Shown here: in pieces, positions 36,256-45,773 of the stretch
Numbering within the stretch: the first letter of the stretch is position 1
Layout: every line of letters starts with the position of its first letter
Source of the DNA: a virus
DNA: 64,000 nucleotides
Reading direction: 5' to 3' (one strand)
IMG/VR virus record: IMGVR_UViG_3300047550_003635
The notes under the pieces: generated by a model
Told to the model about the DNA's origin: nothing
What the model saw: only the letters and a program-made list of their open reading frames with translations
Database searches by the model: none
Translations under genes and position numbers: made by a program

Positions 36256-36476
36256 TGGATAAGATTAATATTCCAAATACTGCATATTTTCGTGATATTC
36301 ATTCAAAAGCGATTTTGAATACGGATAAAAGAGGTCGTGATAAATATCAAATGGAAAGAGAAATTGCTTTAAAAGAAAAAAACGAAAAAGAAGCAAACAA
36401 TCAAAGATTGAACAAGTTGGAACAAGATATGTCAGAGATTAAAAATCTATTAAATGAGATTATAAGGAAAGTATAA
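36255..36476 (+). CDS. small coiled-coil protein (follows VrlC-like gene)
   Basis: RD..SKAILNTD; C-terminal heptads. Confidence 0.7.
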   Translation: MDKINIPNTAYFRDIHSKAILNTDKRGRDKYQMEREIALKEKNEKEANNQRLNKLEQDMSEIKNLLNEIIRKV

Positions 36477-37477
36477 TGGCTGCAAATAATATCAATCAAA
36501 TTTCAACAGCCAATACTTTTGAACATTGGTTAATAGCAACACAAGGACTGATTACAACAGCCAATCTTTTAACGAATGGTAATGGTAGCACATTCTATGC
36601 AAATACCAAATTAGAAATTGGTGGTGTAAATTCTCTTTTAAATGTTACAACTTCTGCGACAATCAATGTATTAAACTCAAACACAATTACTGTTAATGTT
36701 ATAACTTCAAATACAATTACAGCAATTAACACAACAAGTAATTTAACAGCAACTAATGTAACAACCCAGTATATTCAATTTGCCGATGGCACTAAACAAT
36801 ATACTGCAAATGCTGCTAATAGTAGTCAGTCAACATCTATTTCTGCTGCGTTTGATAAAGCAAATTCTGCAAATATTCTTGCACAAGCAGCATTTGATAA
36901 AGCAAATACTGATAACACATTCATTTCAATAACAGCAGGAACATATGGAAATGCTTCTGCTATTCCACAAATTACAGTAGCAGCAAATGGTAGAATTTCT
37001 GCTGTAACTAATGTATCAATATCAATACCAACTGATACTTCAAATGCATCAAATATCACAACAGGAACATTACCATCGGGTAGATTGACTGGTGCATATA
37101 CAGGAGTTACTTCTGTAGGAACTTTAACTGGGTTATCAATAAGTGGTAAAATTAGTGAAGTAATGAATACTGTAACTGCTGTTGTTGGAACAACTACTTT
37201 AGACCTATCGACAAATAGCGTTTATAAAATTGTTATGGCAGCAAATACAACATTAGCATTTAGTAATCCACCAGCATCAGGAATTGAGCAGGGTTTTAAA
37301 CTATATGCCAATACAAATAATGGTAGCAACACAATAACTTGGCCCGCATCAGTAAAGTGGCAATATGGTGCAGCGCCAACACAAACCACAACTGCAAATA
37401 AAACAGATGTGTATGCATTTACAACTAATGATGGTGGTAGCACATATTTCGGTTACGTTTCAGGACTAAATTTCTAA
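36476..37477 (+). CDS. tail fibre protein
   Basis: NTFE.W N-terminus, AAFDKAN repeats, GTYG..IPQITV...GR repeat, C-terminal ITWP..VKW..G.AP domain. Confidence 0.75.
   Translation: MAANNINQISTANTFEHWLIATQGLITTANLLTNGNGSTFYANTKLEIGGVNSLLNVTTSATINVLNSNTITVNVITSNTITAINTTSNLTATNVTTQYIQFADGTKQYTANAANSSQSTSISAAFDKANSANILAQAAFDKANTDNTFISITAGTYGNASAIPQITVAANGRISAVTNVSISIPTDTSNASNITTGTLPSGRLTGAYTGVTSVGTLTGLSISGKISEVMNTVTAVVGTTTLDLSTNSVYKIVMAANTTLAFSNPPASGIEQGFKLYANTNNGSNTITWPASVKWQYGAAPTQTTTANKTDVYAFTTNDGGSTYFGYVSGLNF
37155..37477 (+). repeat. C-terminal fibre domain duplicated at approx. 45452-45773
   Basis: Near-identical DNA and protein (EVMNTVTA.VGTTTLDLSTNSVYK...FGYVSGLNF). Confidence 0.9.
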
Positions 37478-37478
37478 T

Positions 37479-37991
37479 ATGCCATTCTCATCAACGTCGG
37501 GTGCACAAACTAAACGAAAAATATTTGTGACTGCAACAACTTCACAAAGTAGTTATAATTTATTATCAAATGTTTCATCCATAGGAACATTTACAGATTC
37601 TATAGATACTTTTTGGAAAAACAATTCAGGTGTAACTCTCAGTGGTGGAGTAACAACGGGAACAGGTTGGTCAAATGGTTCAAGAGTATATTTAAAAAAT
37701 GAAGGCACAATGAGTGGTTCTACAGGTTCTACAGGAAATCCTGGTTCTAATGGTTCTGGTGGTACAGGTAGTGCTGGTGGTGTTGGTAATAATACTTCAC
37801 CAGGTGGCGCTGGTGGTAATGGTTCTATTGGGGGGACAGGCGGAACCGGAGGAATAGCATTGACTGTAACGTTACCTACAATTGTTGATAATAGTTTAGG
37901 AACTATATCGGGTGGACCTGGTGGACCTGGTGGACCTGGCGGTTCTGGTGGTGGTGGAGGTGGTAGTGGTGGTACAGGATTTGTGCAATGA
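37479..37991 (+). CDS. glycine-rich gp38-like adhesin, N-terminal half
   Basis: TG.GW..G..V.L.N.G, GG.AL.V, DN..G.I.GG and GxxGxx/polyGly runs; ends GGTGFVQ. Confidence 0.65.
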   Translation: MPFSSTSGAQTKRKIFVTATTSQSSYNLLSNVSSIGTFTDSIDTFWKNNSGVTLSGGVTTGTGWSNGSRVYLKNEGTMSGSTGSTGNPGSNGSGGTGSAGGVGNNTSPGGAGGNGSIGGTGGTGGIALTVTLPTIVDNSLGTISGGPGGPGGPGGSGGGGGGSGGTGFVQ

Positions 37992-38470
37992 GTAATTTGA
38001 TATATAAAACACATTTTGGAATGCATGATGAGGATGGATTTAAATCCAGTTCTAATATTCCTGGTGTTGGTAAAATTTTATTATATGTTAGTCCTACAGG
38101 TGTTGGAGTTGGCACACCAGCACAATCATACGGTGGCGGTGGTGGTGGTGGTGGTGCGGGTTCACCAGCAGGTTCTGGTGGTGCTGGCGGTATTGCCGAT
38201 TTTTCAGGTTCACCAGGAAATCCTGGCACTTCAACTACAGGTGGGGCAAGTAGTTCTGGTGGTGGTGGTGCTAATGGTGGTGCAGGAGGACCTTTAAATA
38301 CGCCAGGCACTTCAGGTATTCCATCTTTAGGATGGACTGCTGGTGCAGGTGGCGCAGCAGGAAGTTCTGGTGCAACTGGACCTAGTGGTTCTCAAGGACC
38401 TGCAACAAGTGGTTCTTCAACATATATAACTTGGATTGCAACCGGAACAAGAAATGGTCCTATAAATTAA
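37988..38470 (+). CDS. glycine-rich gp38-like adhesin, C-terminal half with approx. 48-aa non-Gly leader
   Basis: ATGA overlap, AGGA SD 8 nt upstream; polyGly runs; ends ITWIATGTRNGPIN. Confidence 0.65.
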   Translation: MSNLIYKTHFGMHDEDGFKSSSNIPGVGKILLYVSPTGVGVGTPAQSYGGGGGGGGAGSPAGSGGAGGIADFSGSPGNPGTSTTGGASSSGGGGANGGAGGPLNTPGTSGIPSLGWTAGAGGAAGSSGATGPSGSQGPATSGSSTYITWIATGTRNGPIN

Positions 38471-38484
38471 TCAGTAATTTTAAA

Positions 38485-39099
38485 ATGGAAATCGTAATGA
38501 GTGAGCATTATTATTCTTATCCCTTCAACAAAACAACTAAAGACCAAGGATACGCTTTTTGGAAAGATGGTTTTTCTAAAGAAGATATTAAAAAAATAAT
38601 TGAACTTGGTGAATCAAATGAAATTGTTGATGCAAAAGTTGGAAATAATATCGTGGATAGTGATATACGAGAATCTAAGATATCTTGGATTAATCCCTCA
38701 GAAAATTCAATTTGGTTATTTGATAAAATGTGTAACATAGCATCTTTATTAAATAATCAATATTTTGGATTTAATTTAAGTGGTATGTTAGCGTTTCAAT
38801 ATACAATATATAATGCAAATACTGAAACAAAAGGTTTTTATGATTGGCATATTGATAGAATGGGATTGGGTGATGGAAATAATTTACCAAGAAAATTGTC
38901 ACTGATTTTGCAATTGTCGGATCCAATGGATTATGAAGGTGGTGAGGTTTGGATTCACGGACTTTGTAGAGAATGTATGCCAAAAACAAAAGGTCTTGTC
39001 ATTGCATTTCCGGGAAACACATTACATCGTGTAACTCCAGTTACATCAGGCATCAGAAAATCATTAGTAGCTTGGATAGTAGGTCCAGATTTTATCTAA
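38485..39099 (+). CDS. 2OG-Fe(II) oxygenase (prolyl-4-hydroxylase/PKHD-like)
   Basis: YDWHID (HxD), RKLSL, YEGGE, HRVTPV..G.RKSLV.W; ATG at 38485 or 38497. Confidence 0.9.
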   Translation: MEIVMSEHYYSYPFNKTTKDQGYAFWKDGFSKEDIKKIIELGESNEIVDAKVGNNIVDSDIRESKISWINPSENSIWLFDKMCNIASLLNNQYFGFNLSGMLAFQYTIYNANTETKGFYDWHIDRMGLGDGNNLPRKLSLILQLSDPMDYEGGEVWIHGLCRECMPKTKGLVIAFPGNTLHRVTPVTSGIRKSLVAWIVGPDFI

Positions 39100-39100
39100 T

Positions 39101-39781
39101 ATGGAAACAATAAACCTATTTACAATACCCCTCTTTAAATTCAAATATGATAAGCATGATGAATTTAAACCAAAAGCGATAGAATATTTAACAGATGAAA
39201 AATGTGAATATCCAGTTTCACATAATGGATTGTTTATTAGTAAACCAAATTTACATAAGCATGAAAATTTTATTGATTTTAAAAATTTTACACAGATTTG
39301 TTTAGAACAATCAATGATAGCTTTAGGGTATTATCCAAAAATACAAATAACTGGGATATGGGCAACAAAACATGTTGATAGGGGAAGTCATCATAGACAC
39401 CAACATGGAAATACTTTTTTAATAGGTGTTTATTATTTGAGTGGTAATGAAAAAAGTTCAGGTACAACTTTTTATAATCCAAATAAAAATTTAATTAGTT
39501 ATATTATACCTAAAAAAATTCCAGAGAGTGAAAAAAGAAAGCGCATAATGAAACCTTCTGTAACTAATAAATTTGAAGAAGGAACTTTCATAGTTTTTCC
39601 ATCTTGGTTGGAACATTCAACAAACGTTAATGATTTCGAATTGACTCAATCAGATAGATATATTTTAGGTATAAATTCTATGCCGTTAGGTCCAACCAAC
39701 AATGATTTATATGATAGATTTAATTATCAAGATGTGATGAAAGTGGAGATGATTGAATCGACTAGAGATAGTGTTAAATAA
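39101..39781 (+). CDS. putative 2OG-Fe(II) oxygenase (TIGR02466-like)
   Basis: W......H.RHQH.N....GVYY, FPSWL.H, R..L..N. Confidence 0.82.
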   Translation: METINLFTIPLFKFKYDKHDEFKPKAIEYLTDEKCEYPVSHNGLFISKPNLHKHENFIDFKNFTQICLEQSMIALGYYPKIQITGIWATKHVDRGSHHRHQHGNTFLIGVYYLSGNEKSSGTTFYNPNKNLISYIIPKKIPESEKRKRIMKPSVTNKFEEGTFIVFPSWLEHSTNVNDFELTQSDRYILGINSMPLGPTNNDLYDRFNYQDVMKVEMIESTRDSVK

Positions 39782-39787
39782 TTTTTT

Positions 39788-40939
39788 TTATTGTAAAGGA
39801 TATAATTTAGAATTTTTTTTACGAATTTGTTTTGGATATAAATCATCATATAAAATATAATTTTCTATCCAAATTGGATATATATTTTTTTTAAATTTTT
39901 TTAAACAATTTAAATAATTTTTTGAAGATTGACTTGAACTTTGCCAAAACCATTCATCCCTAGTGCTTAAAAAAACTCCATTTGTTGATTTTGTATGTAA
40001 ATTTTTTTTATCGTCATACCAAAGATATATTAAGTTTTTAAAGTCTGTGTCACCCAAATTACCATATGGATTCTTCATCGTTATAAAAATTTCATCATAT
40101 TTTTTAGGTTTTGAATGATATTCCCTATTAATTTTATTTGATAGATATTTTTTTATGATATGTGATTGTTTTATTAAAATATTTGATGATTCAATAGTTG
40201 GTGACCAATAAAATAAATCATTATATACTAACTCATGGAATCCTGTTTTTTGGTCCTTTAGACACATTGTTCCATCTATTATATCAGTAAAATAAAAATA
40301 AAATCTATCTTCATTCACTGAGATTCTAGGTTTTTCACATCCCCATATGAGACATATTTTTTTATTCGAATCAATTATATCAGTCCATTCTGGAATATAT
40401 TCATATAATCTATGTTTTGCTAAACAACTAATTGCGCCAAAATTATTAATCCATTCATAATTATCATTTTCATCATTTAAAAATGTTTCAATGATTTTTT
40501 TGCTTATATCGAATACCCTATGTTTAATTTTTAAATTGTGTTTTTTATTAATATCAATTATTTTAGGACATGCTATTTGATAAATTTCTCTATTAGCAAA
40601 AGAATCTTTACTTCCGCTACCCTCTAAATTTACGAGACTACAAACCTCATCTAATGGAATATTAAAATTCACAAAAGTTTCTAATATATTGTCAGAATCA
40701 CTTCCAGAACTATACATTAGAATTATATAATCATAATTATTTCTTAATTGTTCTGCTTTATTTTTATAAAGTATTTCTAAAGATTCTTCAGGCTCTTTTG
40801 TCCAATCAAATTTCGAGAAAAAATCATCATTATAATACCATTTAACAGAATCGATATCATCAGTCAAGGTCATTATATCATATTTTCGATATGTCTTGAA
40901 GTCTTTATACACATAATAACCATAATTATCACTATCCAT
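39788..40939 (-). CDS. PP-loop (adenine nucleotide alpha-hydrolase-like) protein
   Basis: ILMYSSGSDS resembles SGGxDS; later WG.EKP motif. Confidence 0.6.
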   Translation of the reverse strand: MDSDNYGYYVYKDFKTYRKYDIMTLTDDIDSVKWYYNDDFFSKFDWTKEPEESLEILYKNKAEQLRNNYDYIILMYSSGSDSDNILETFVNFNIPLDEVCSLVNLEGSGSKDSFANREIYQIACPKIIDINKKHNLKIKHRVFDISKKIIETFLNDENDNYEWINNFGAISCLAKHRLYEYIPEWTDIIDSNKKICLIWGCEKPRISVNEDRFYFYFTDIIDGTMCLKDQKTGFHELVYNDLFYWSPTIESSNILIKQSHIIKKYLSNKINREYHSKPKKYDEIFITMKNPYGNLGDTDFKNLIYLWYDDKKNLHTKSTNGVFLSTRDEWFWQSSSQSSKNYLNCLKKFKKNIYPIWIENYILYDDLYPKQIRKKNSKLYPLQ

Positions 40940-40945
40940 AAAAAT

Positions 40946-41233
40946 TTACATAATATCCCAATTATCAATTTCTGATTGTGACAATGTATATTTTTCACCT
41001 ATGTTTAATACAAATTTTAATTTTGTAGAATTTTCAGAAATCTGACTATATTCAGTGTCTAAATTGGGTGCACATCTAGCTATTTCTTTACGCAATGCTG
41101 CGATGGACATAGGTTCTCCGTCTTTAGAAATTGGTGGAATCAAATTAAGTGATTTGCTAATTCCTCTATCATCGTGATATTCTACAACAGTTCCGTGATA
41201 ACTAACTTCTTTTATTGTAAAACCTGTAATCAT
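40946..41233 (-). CDS. hypothetical protein
   Basis: AGGAG SD on the minus strand; CATAAATA late box upstream (approx. 41264-41271). Confidence 0.65.
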   Translation of the reverse strand: MITGFTIKEVSYHGTVVEYHDDRGISKSLNLIPPISKDGEPMSIAALRKEIARCAPNLDTEYSQISENSTKLKFVLNIGEKYTLSQSEIDNWDIM

Positions 41234-41329
41234 TTTTTAATCTCCTAAAATCAAATATATACATATTTATGTGAATTTATACTTTTGCATTTGACTAAAT
41301 AGTAAAATAATAACAAAATAGGTCAATAA

Positions 41330-41662
41330 ATGGCTGGATACGTCGAACTTACAATAGAACAGGGTGCTGATTTTTCAACATCGGTTACTGTTTATGATGC
41401 CACGGGTGCTGCACAAAATCTGACTTCATATACAGCAGCATCGCAACTTAGAAAGTCGTATTATTCATCAAGTGCAAATAATATGAGTGCTTCTATAAGC
41501 AGTCCCGCTAATGGTGTAATCACAATATCAATGACAGCAGCTAATACTGCAAATTTGACGCCAGGTAGAATGTTACATGATTTACTAATAACAAGTCCAG
41601 CCGGAATCAAAACAAGGGTTATTGAAGGTATTGCTGTGATAATGCCTTCAGTAACAAGATAA
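41330..41662 (+). CDS. virion structural adaptor protein
   Basis: L.IEQGADF, LT.YT..SQLRKSY, G.I.IS, RV.EG motifs; GACTAAATA late box upstream. Confidence 0.7.
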   Translation: MAGYVELTIEQGADFSTSVTVYDATGAAQNLTSYTAASQLRKSYYSSSANNMSASISSPANGVITISMTAANTANLTPGRMLHDLLITSPAGIKTRVIEGIAVIMPSVTR

Positions 41663-44099: not shown

Positions 44100-45773
44100 A
44101 TGGCAAATACAGTAATTGCTGTTCGTAGTTCAGGTTCAACAGGAAATACACCATCTCTTGGTGTAATCGCTAATGGTGAATTATCGCTTAACTATGCTGA
44201 TGGTATTTTATACTACAAATCATCATCAAATACATTAGGACAAATCAAAACAACACAAGTTTCTGGATTGAATCAACAAGTTCAATTCAATGACTCTGGT
44301 TCTTTTGGTGGTAATTCTAGTTTAACATTTGATAAATCTACAGGCACTCTTTCAACAAATTTACTTAGAGTTACTCAATCTTCTGGTGATGAAGGTGGTC
44401 AAATTGATTTGGCATTAGCCGCGGCAGCTAATACATCTCTAAATGGAACTGTCGCAATTGATATTTACCAAAATAAATTGAGATTTTTTGAAACAGGTGG
44501 AACAAATCGTGGTGCATACATTGATTTAACTGCTGCAAGCACTGGAGTAGGTAGTAATTTATTATCGGGTGGCGGTGGTGGTTCAGTCACATCTGTTGGT
44601 GGGCAAACTGGTGCAATATCAAACACACAGTTAGTTAGTTTCGTAACAACACCCACATTACCAACAACAGGTAATTTAATTGTATATAATGGAACATCTT
44701 TTACATCACTTGCAAATACTGGAATAGCAGGAACATATGCGAATGCTGCTTATGTTCCAGTAATTACTACGGATGCGTATGGTCGTGTTTCAGGTATAAC
44801 AAATACTGCAATTTCAATCCCAACAACTGCTGTTACTGGTGTATTTGGATTTAGTTCTGGCGGAACAAACGCAACTTCATACACAACTGGTGCATTACTC
44901 ACAAGTAACGGCACAGCAATTGTATCATTGGCAAATACTGGAACAGCAGGAACTTATGGTAATGCAACTTATGTTCCAGTAATTACAACAGATGCATATG
45001 GTCGTGTTACATCAATTGTCAATACTGCAATTTCTGCGAGTGGTTCTTCTGGAAATACATTTAACATTTATAATGTAAATACCCAAATATTTCAAGCAAC
45101 TGCAAATGGAGCACAAACAAGTTTTGAATTAGGATTTACTCCATTCGCATCAAATAATGTTATAGTTACTGCAAATGGTGTTGTTCAATATGATTATACT
45201 GTTGCAGGTTCAACATTAACTTTAAATTTTACTCCACCAAATAATACTCTAATAAGAGCGCAAGCGATAGGTATATCTTCACCTAATGTATTAACTCCTG
45301 TTTTTACAACAGGCAATTTAATAACATCGAATGGCAATACATTAATTTCATCAATTGTCAGTGAATCAAGTGGTAATATAGGAATTGGTATAAGTTTACC
45401 GAGTGTAAAATTAGATGTTGCAGGTAGTTTTAAAATAAGTGGTTCAATAAACGAGGTAATGAATACTGTAACTGCTACAGTTGGAACAACTACATTAGAT
45501 TTATCAACAAATAGCGTTTATAAAATTGTTATGGCAGCAAATACTACTCTCGCATTTAGTAATCCACCAGCATCTGGTATTGAGAGAAATTTTAAATTAT
45601 ATGCCAATACAAATAATGGCAGTAATACTATTACATGGCCTGCTGCGGTTAAGTGGCAATATGGTGCAGCACCAACACAAACTACAACTGCAAATAAAAC
45701 AGACATATATGCTTTTAGCACCAATGATGGTGGTACCACATATTTTGGTTATGTCTCAGGATTAAATTTTTAG
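44100..45773 (+). CDS. tail fibre protein
   Basis: MANTVIAVRSS..P......GEL.LN.ADG.LYYK N-terminal domain; VQFNDSGSFGG; shares the C-terminal domain of 36476-37477. Confidence 0.8.
   Translation: MANTVIAVRSSGSTGNTPSLGVIANGELSLNYADGILYYKSSSNTLGQIKTTQVSGLNQQVQFNDSGSFGGNSSLTFDKSTGTLSTNLLRVTQSSGDEGGQIDLALAAAANTSLNGTVAIDIYQNKLRFFETGGTNRGAYIDLTAASTGVGSNLLSGGGGGSVTSVGGQTGAISNTQLVSFVTTPTLPTTGNLIVYNGTSFTSLANTGIAGTYANAAYVPVITTDAYGRVSGITNTAISIPTTAVTGVFGFSSGGTNATSYTTGALLTSNGTAIVSLANTGTAGTYGNATYVPVITTDAYGRVTSIVNTAISASGSSGNTFNIYNVNTQIFQATANGAQTSFELGFTPFASNNVIVTANGVVQYDYTVAGSTLTLNFTPPNNTLIRAQAIGISSPNVLTPVFTTGNLITSNGNTLISSIVSESSGNIGIGISLPSVKLDVAGSFKISGSINEVMNTVTATVGTTTLDLSTNSVYKIVMAANTTLAFSNPPASGIERNFKLYANTNNGSNTITWPAAVKWQYGAAPTQTTTANKTDIYAFSTNDGGTTYFGYVSGLNF

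Follow-up and report, generated by a model that had tools for sequence, protein, structure and literature searches.

A probable two-chain gp38-type tail-fibre tip adhesin encoded by a split gene in an aquatic virus

The IMG/VR virus record IMGVR_UViG_3300047550_003635, from a freshwater T4-like phage, contains, in the tail-fibre part of its structural module, two glycine-rich open reading frames, ORF1 (positions 37479-37991, plus strand, 170 residues) and ORF2 (37988-38470, plus strand, 160 residues, ending ITWIATGTRNGPIN). We consider it probable that they are translationally coupled genes which together encode a two-chain gp38-type glycine-rich adhesin of the tail-fibre tip. The window, i.e. 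the whole stretch of DNA that was analyzed, comprises 64 kb of the 133-kb record (76% complete) and has a G+C content of about 32%. Its terminase shares about 55% identity with the terminases of T4-like myoviruses of Synechococcus and Pelagibacter. Metagenomes in which the stretch occurs come from 11 studies and cover freshwater, reservoirs and sediment.

In the proposed arrangement the N-terminal domain and the long central polyglycine helix would come from ORF1, together with the first glycine-rich helices and the greater part of the beta-helix core. ORF2 would add an enlarged loop, the remaining glycine-rich helices and a C-terminal strand that packs back on ORF1. Assembly of the two chains would be non-covalent, by fragment complementation, and would take place at the tip of the fibre protein whose gene precedes ORF1, so that the free C-terminus of ORF1 and the N-terminal extension of ORF2 would both lie at the receptor-facing tip. 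The oxygenase genes and the PP-loop unit that follow would belong to a variable gene island 3' of the adhesin and would not be specific to the split.

The split junction and its recurrence

A sequence-only reading of the window had described the two frames, an ATGA stop/start overlap, an AGGA Shine-Dalgarno sequence, a non-glycine N-terminus of about 48 residues in ORF2 and the genes downstream, and all of these were found as described. ORF1 ends with a polyglycine run followed by SGGTGFVQ. The junction (37976-37991, plus strand) consists of the Shine-Dalgarno sequence at 37976-37979, located 8 nucleotides (nt) before the ATG of ORF2, and the ATGA overlap at 37988-37991. Residues 1-48 of ORF2 (37988-38131, plus strand) form the non-glycine N-terminal extension, which had been called a leader. 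An eight-glycine run follows directly, and residues 49-160 (38132-38470, plus strand) represent the core of the second chain with the remaining glycine-rich segments and the C-terminal strand motif ITW..GTR.G.

With respect to ORF1, ORF2 is read in the -1 frame, and a single additional base would join both. This could speak for a defect or an artefact, be it a frameshifted pseudogene, an assembly error within GGN repeats or a programmed -1 frameshift leading to one protein, as could the fact that the single chain is the commonest form in the family and that certain short database forms are contig-end artefacts with adapter-derived tails. However, positions 37985-37992, for which the sequence-only reading had asked for read support, are bridged with 0 gaps by Logan contigs of four runs, each from a different study, and no indel is listed in the contigs of these runs within 37300-38700. 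The closest relative, L001, retains both frames with 62-65% protein identity and a different junction, TAATG. In a second relative (L004/L005) three frames are found, encoding an N-terminal piece of 160 residues followed by pieces of 112 and 151 residues. The first two are separated by a 37-nt spacer with its own AGGAG, and the last two share an ATGA overlap. Spacers with own ribosome-binding sites and in-frame stops, as in L004 and L012, do not fit a defect either. A TAG at 37964-37966 in the frame of ORF2, 22 nt 5' of the ATG, leaves no more than 7 codons in which a -1 frameshift could occur, and the ORF1/ORF2 junction lacks a slippery heptamer. Programmed frameshifting of the canonical type is thus argued against. 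The split is genuine and not an assembly error, and a defect or artefact of any kind is extremely improbable.

Relatives were collected with a HMMER profile of ORF1-type sequences, which was searched against 1.8 billion representatives and gave 127 relatives. An ORF1-like gene that stops just past the polyglycine run and is followed by an ORF2-like gene was found in the loci L010, L011, L012 and L013 and on the contig of P0032. The details of the junction vary. L010 shows an ATGA overlap and an extension of about 33 residues, L011 an overlapping start with an extension of about 50 residues, and L012 an 18-nt spacer with a ribosome-binding site and 6 residues before the polyglycine run. In L013 the break is located somewhat further along and the second piece comprises 325 residues, and on the P0032 contig a piece of 166 residues is followed by one of 125 residues. 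Eleven of 12 aligned short forms terminate within a few residues of the same polyglycine run. Besides the two close relatives, four lineages break after the same run.

Many other relatives are single chains of 250-350 residues. In a MAFFT alignment ORF1 plus ORF2 is colinear with such single-chain homologues, including P0089, P0055, P0037, P0059, P0078 and P0087, and so are the pair of L001 and the three pieces of L004. The colinearity extends from the N-terminal domain over the element 'xDNxxGTIxGG...polyGly' to the C-terminal motif ITW..GTR.G. A DNA pattern for this last motif matched more than 119 IMG/VR stretches. Among them, 72 glycine-rich frames end 3 residues past the motif, and the complete ones nearly all comprise 220-340 residues with an N-terminal domain of their own. 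Taken together, it is shown that the split is inherited and recurrent and that the pair is colinear with single-chain homologues. Searches for related loci with ORF2, A1 or A6 gave L001 again or nothing, and no match was obtained for the region or for ORF1 in blastn and tblastn searches of the INPHARED phages, with the low-complexity filter on and in a set from which the closest records may be missing. A word-based search for protein homologues of ORF2 gave no match either, since its index is swamped by polyglycine words.

The same glycine-rich domain was also observed at the C-terminus of two very large proteins, P0035 (710 residues) and P0036 (1689 residues), where it occurs twice in the latter. 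The repeat-rich regions of P0036 resemble, by eye only, bacterial surface proteins. The domain may not be confined to phage fibre tips.

Relationship to gp38 and assembly from two chains

The family was compared with gp38 at several levels. For ORF1, 28 of the 30 nearest clusters in the ESM Atlas are proteins with the GP38 domain PF05268 (cosine 0.95; template modelling score of the structure 0.64), and the nearest clusters consist to 94-100% of PF05268 proteins. The 160-residue piece of L004 has a precomputed PF05268 match. The family profile A7, built from 30 single-chain sequences, was aligned to S16 gp38 by hhalign with a probability of 87.4% and an E-value of 3.6e-6 over 160 columns. The aligned gp38 residues 85-246 correspond to the entire receptor-binding part. 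The window frames are connected to the A7 family by HMMER and the colinear alignment, and for them the match to gp38 is thus indirect. In the hhalign alignment the long polyglycine run of the family falls on helix 3 of gp38 and the C-terminus of ORF2 on the C-terminus of S16 gp38. The sequence and the alignments also show the alternation of glycine-rich motifs and variable segments, the long polyglycine run in the centre and the conserved motif at the C-terminus. Because of the A7-gp38 match, the Atlas neighbours of ORF1 and near-full-length PF05268 matches below the threshold, the family represents a distant branch of the gp38-type glycine-rich adhesins, with the window copy as a split member. 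The assignment of a gp38-type polyglycine adhesin in two cistrons, already proposed from the sequence, is borne out by the colinearity and the alignment to S16 gp38.

Several observations weigh against this assignment. A search with PF05268 gave no match to ORF1, ORF2 or the L001 and L004 pieces at E-values up to 10. The single-chain relatives reach 13-18.9 bits, compared to a gathering score of 25 bits, over profile positions 16-217 of 218. An AlphaFold2 (AF2) model of ORF1 from a two-row alignment showed a predicted local distance difference test score (pLDDT) of 33. The N-terminal fibre-attachment domain of gp38 was not detected, since the hhalign match starts at residue 85 and covers nothing of residues 1-84; in ORF1 only about 50 residues precede the core. 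Furthermore, the location of the break at the tip relies on aligning the sequence with a single solved structure. Pfam and PHROGs gave nothing for ORF1 or ORF2. Searches of the profiles A1 and A2 against the sequences of the Protein Data Bank (PDB) returned linker or low-complexity noise only, and a profile search with A7 returned non-significant matches to Obg N-terminal domains and PP01 gp38 (E-values 0.5-4).

In S16 gp38, an excursion of 77 residues between the strands beta8 and beta11 forms the polyglycine II (PGII) helices 3-10, helix 3 is an eight-glycine run at residues 151-158, and receptor binding is proposed to take place at the five distal loops (PMC6851490). Besides the N-terminal domain and the strands of the beta-helix, ORF1 includes the first glycine-rich segments as well as the long polyglycine run, corresponding to PGII helices 1-3 of S16 gp38. 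Since this run aligns to helix 3 and ORF1 ends a few residues past it, we infer from the geometry of the fold that the break is located in the loop between PGII helices 3 and 4, which would be a distal, receptor-facing loop. The earlier placement of the break in a receptor-binding loop between glycine runs finds support in the colinear alignment and in the match to gp38. The additional break of L004 lies between the first two glycine-rich segments and would, by the same comparison, fall in the distal loop that connects helix 1 with helix 2.

The sequence-only reading had seen in the N-terminus of ORF2 a leader, with a possible modification similar to that of a ribosomally synthesised and post-translationally modified peptide (RiPP). 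This was not supported. Residues 1-48 align opposite a variable loop of 5-30 residues in the single-chain homologues, and they are homologous within the clade of the window, L001 and L004 only, being absent or unrelated in other split lineages. With 48 residues in the window, 6 in L012, about 33 in L010 and about 50 in L011, no sequence is common between the lineages. Since the extensions are unrelated and take the position of a variable loop of single chains, there is no conserved recognition leader of the RiPP type. We read residues 1-48 as a probably enlarged distal loop with a free end, i.e. a displayed tip module and not a cleaved leader, and regard the extension as a candidate for an additional receptor-contact module.

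In L004, two adjacent minus-strand pieces (L004:12723-13061 and L004:12271-12726) begin with near-identical extensions of about 35 residues. Past the extension, the piece following the extra break shows a run of seven prolines and its paralogue a run of eight glycines. This swap of polyproline for polyglycine fits a polyproline II (PPII) or PGII helix at that position. PPPPPP was also observed directly before the polyglycine run in the second pieces of L010 and L011.

Prediction of the complex of ORF1 and ORF2 gave an interaction prediction score from aligned errors (ipSAE) of 0.68 in three runs, compared to 0.00 for the best of three controls. Among solved complexes 58 of 80 attain this mark, among mismatched pairs 2 of 110. 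Agreement between the runs extended to at least 97% of the contacts, 422 contacts were predicted and the partner pLDDT was 77. The predicted interface involves residues 89-170 of ORF1 and 45-160 of ORF2, leaving ORF2 residues 1-42 outside, and brings the ORF1 strand 133-138 into contact with the C-terminal ORF2 strand 147-149. The predicted complex agrees with the topology derived from gp38. The favourable score may, however, reflect the likeness to the solved S16 gp38, and two parts of one divided gene often pass such a test.

A score that reflects likeness to gp38 would also be in accordance with ORF1 and ORF2 being separate glycine-rich proteins, ORF2 for example a small fibre decoration or an assembly factor. 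The Atlas neighbours of ORF2 are small viral glycine-rich proteins of 101-126 residues, forming many clusters of similar appearance, and its Atlas model is poor, with a predicted template modelling score of 0.34. In contrast, the pair is colinear with single chains from the N-terminal domain to the C-terminal motif. The C-terminal strand of ORF2 is the conserved terminus of the domain, whose counterpart in gp38 returns to the beta-helix core, which is encoded by ORF1 here. Considering also the 422 predicted contacts and the score of 0.00 in the controls, separate functions of the two proteins appear improbable, and we prefer their assembly into one adhesin.

The presumed carrier of the tip adhesin is the tail-fibre protein of 333 residues encoded directly upstream (36476-37477, plus strand; phrog_7760/9017 tail fiber protein, E-value 1.6e-15). 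Its stop is separated from the ATG of ORF1 by 1 nt, and a fibre-like gene directly 5' of the ORF1-like gene is also present in L001 and L011-L013. The fibre proteins at 36476-37477 and 44100-45773 share a nearly identical C-terminal domain of about 100 residues that ends with YFGYVSGLNF, and the glycine-rich pair follows the first of the two genes alone. The common domain suggests one adaptor domain with different tips.

Downstream genes and possible tailoring

Directly downstream of ORF2, two different 2-oxoglutarate (2OG)-Fe(II) oxygenases are encoded on the plus strand. The first (38485-39099, with ATG at 38485 or 38497; phrog_61) is of the PiuC/PKHD type and matches PF13640 (Oxy_3) with 46.9 bits. 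The second (39101-39781; phrog_81) is of the 2OG-FeII_Oxy_5 type and matches PF13759 with 52.5 bits, the cut-off being 27 bits in each case. They are the sole Oxy_3 and the sole Oxy_5 copies of the 133-kb record. The closest solved relative of the Oxy_3 protein is the PKHD-type hydroxylase PiuC (E-value 5.4e-9).

To what extent such genes accompany the adhesins was determined in 63 single-chain adhesin loci from the IMG/VR series L014-L093. In 16 of them a homologue of Oxy_3 or Oxy_5 is located within 4 kb 3' of the adhesin, always on the same strand. The density per 100 kb amounts to 10.3 in the 4 kb 3' of the adhesins, 0.55 in the rest of these loci and 0.09 in the control, which consists of 1.08 Mb of PP-loop loci and was chosen differently from the adhesin loci. 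PiuC-like genes are thus about 100-fold denser 3' of gp38-like adhesins than in this control viral DNA. An Oxy_3 homologue also occurs in four of the seven PP-loop loci that bear an adhesin. The association of oxygenases with adhesins as neighbours is strong, for split and unsplit forms alike, and represents a lead.

These findings are compatible with a PiuC/PKHD-type oxygenase (38485-39099) that would hydroxylate residues in gp38-like adhesins, split or not, or in the fibre, with prolines as the most plausible targets. Such a function would add to the two-chain assembly. The proline content points in the same direction: adhesins with an oxygenase neighbour contain 6.7% proline, those without 3.2%, at equal glycine (Mann-Whitney p 9e-5, n=13 vs 14), and ORF1 plus ORF2 contain 19 prolines in 330 residues (5.8%). 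On the tree of the adhesins, however, the oxygenase label needs four changes and yields only 2-4 phylogenetically independent contrasts, so that the proline correlation is not phylogenetically independent. The differently chosen control weakens the enrichment as evidence, and about three quarters of the adhesin loci lack such a gene in the fetched flank. Cyanomyoviruses often have several 2OG oxygenases, for which other roles in 2OG/nitrogen signalling and DNA repair have been proposed (PMC3037559). No substrate of PiuC is named in the titles of the PDB entries or the literature found. Hydroxylation by this enzyme is therefore a tentative possibility, which we consider unlikely at present.

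Convergent to the oxygenases, a unit on the minus strand encodes a PP-loop adenosine triphosphate (ATP) pyrophosphatase of asparagine-synthetase-like type (39788-40939, 383 residues) and, 5' of it, a protein of 95 residues without family assignment (40946-41233). For the PP-loop family at least 29 cluster representatives were obtained, with the consensus YDYxVLMYSGGSDS and invariant G79 and D81. The window copy shows SSGSDS where the family has SGGSDS. An AF2 model of the protein reached a pLDDT of 92.8. Its best fold matches are AsnB (Z 10.7, 281 residues aligned, root-mean-square deviation 5.8), human ASNS (10.2), beta-lactam synthetase (9.2) and carbapenam synthetase (8.2), compared to a Z of about 7 for generic PP-loop enzymes. 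Common to the C-terminal domain of AsnB, the beta-lactam and carbapenam synthetases and the model are the PP-loop core and the AsnB-type helical extension, with 270-281 residues aligned. Unlike asparagine synthetase B with its N-terminal nucleophile (Ntn) glutaminase domain, the protein aligns to AsnB residues 120-516 only, and in contrast to the AsnB-type synthetases, with which it shares 9-11% identity, it does not match the Pfam family Asn_synthase. According to the model it is an ATP pyrophosphatase resembling the synthetase domain of asparagine synthetase, without the glutaminase domain.

The sequence-only reading had combined these genes with the split and proposed that the PP-loop and 2OG enzymes could process the split termini and the leader by cleavage, hydroxylation, ligation, cyclisation or capping, resulting in a RiPP-like tailored adhesin. 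Its guess on the chemistry was reasonable, given the AsnB-like fold and the ability of AsnB, beta-lactam and carbapenam synthetase domains to adenylate carboxylates and form amides. In addition, PP-loop homologues are located one to two genes 3' of the split adhesins in L011 (one) and L012 (three in tandem), and the record has no Oxy_3 or Oxy_5 genes apart from the two directly after ORF2. The link of the PP-loop enzyme to the adhesin, however, was not supported by the neighbourhoods. In a census of 79 IMG/VR loci (L136-L214) with fetched flanks of up to 10 kb, a glycine-rich adhesin was absent from the flanks of 72 PP-loop loci, and in five of the seven others it is a single chain. Conversely, none of the 63 single-chain adhesin loci carries a PP-loop gene, so that this enzyme is not a general requirement of the adhesin family. 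The usual partners of the PP-loop gene are others, namely a DUF2061 membrane protein directly 3' (26 loci), the S-adenosylmethionine (SAM) decarboxylase SpeD (23), TctC (22), a radical-SAM protein of the rSAM-SPASM type two genes 3' (20) and a beta-barrel gene for a porin or outer-membrane protein 5' (24). This recurring cassette looks like a self-contained, uncharacterised pathway. In L006, L008 and L009 the PP-loop gene is surrounded by early or metabolic genes and accompanied by genes for TctC, NMO and radical-SAM proteins. No TctC or NMO gene is present in the record of the window, as far as its 76% completeness goes, whereas close relatives have them beside the PP-loop gene. L212 finally shows three tandem PP-loop paralogues 3' of two unsplit adhesins. 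Since L011 and L012 are split but L212 is not, the PP-loop gene is linked to a variable island 3' of the adhesin in one freshwater phage group and not to the split.

The oxygenases accompany unsplit adhesins as well, and from both censuses the presence of the enzymes is uncorrelated with the split. Together with the lacking conservation of the leader (6 residues in L012, unrelated in L010 and L011) and its alignment to a loop of unsplit homologues, this makes RiPP-like processing of the split ends very improbable. That the adhesin is chemically tailored at all, be it by PiuC-like prolyl hydroxylation of PGII/PPII helices, which would stabilise the receptor-binding tip in the manner of collagen, or, going further, by AsnB-like capping or joining of the split termini, is doubtful. 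For the hydroxylation version there is some support from the neighbourhoods, for the capping or joining version almost none.

The remaining features of the unit concern its promoter and its small gene. The minus-strand orientation of the convergent unit stands as described, while the late box ascribed to it comes down to a minus-strand string near 41262-41270 that resembles CATAAATA. Neither strand of the 64 kb contains the T4 late-promoter consensus TATAAATA, compared to 9.9 +/- 3.7 occurrences expected from shuffles. CTAAATA is found in nine copies in the window, all on the plus strand, and several copies, for example those at 41295, 53027 and 58415, are situated just 5' of the gene starts at 41330, 53061 and 58464. 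The 95-residue protein (40946-41233) gave no Pfam or PHROG match, and homologues were found solely in the two closest relatives.

Directly after the split pairs of L011 and L012, a protein of 136-137 residues without family assignment is encoded (L011:7978-8391, L012:7888-8298), which is a candidate assembly factor. A counterpart was not found in the window. The 95-residue protein shows no similarity to it, nor to a 72-residue protein that is common near PP-loop genes.

Implications and comparison with known systems

Among the host-range determinants of T-even phages, gp38-type adhesins, with their three-layer lattice of PGII helices, are understood best, and they serve as scaffolds for engineering. 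A natural form in two or three chains would mean that the polyglycine lattice can be built from fragments. The breaks would fall at two different distal loops, and in one relative, L004, both breaks carry a copy of one extension module. This suggests that distal loops can carry free-ended display modules far larger than the usual short variable segments, and that half-adhesins could be exchanged as cassettes. We consider the split adhesin to be of moderate interest for phage structural biology and the engineering of receptor-binding proteins. The neighbourhood of oxygenases and adhesins is a separate, testable lead on the question why aquatic T4-like phages carry 2OG oxygenase genes.

Split gp38 genes are not mentioned in the searched literature, including the main comparative paper on gp38. 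A polyglycine adhesin made from several cistrons is undescribed there, and the solved or described gp38-type examples are single chains. With S16 gp38 (PDB 6F45) and the gp38 of the T2/T6/PP01 type (PF05268) the pair shares the glycine-rich motifs parted by variable segments, the long central polyglycine run right after a 'xxNNxGxIxGG' strand, the conserved C-terminal strand motif and the position of the gene directly 3' of the distal tail-fibre gene. In contrast to the monomeric single chain of gp38, two cistrons are found here and three in L004. The N-terminal domain of gp38, which consists of three short helices with a conserved tryptophan and docks on the gp37 trimer, was not detected, and the loop past the central helix comprises 48 residues with a free N-terminus.

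A further receptor-binding protein of an aquatic myovirus is the tail fibre gp24 of the myocyanophage Pam3, which combines a tumour necrosis factor-like domain with a glycine-rich domain (PMC9608196). Unlike the pair described here it is, by description, a single-chain homotrimer with fibre and tip in one protein and 12 glycine-rich motifs in four layers.

Split genes as such are familiar from T4-like phages, with the topoisomerase genes 39/60 as well as polymerase and nrd genes that are interrupted by homing endonucleases. Similar to these, an essential protein would be formed from adjacent pieces that assemble after translation. In contrast, the junction described here contains no mobile gene or endonuclease, neighbouring pieces either overlap or are separated by 18-37 nt, and it is a single small domain that is interrupted.

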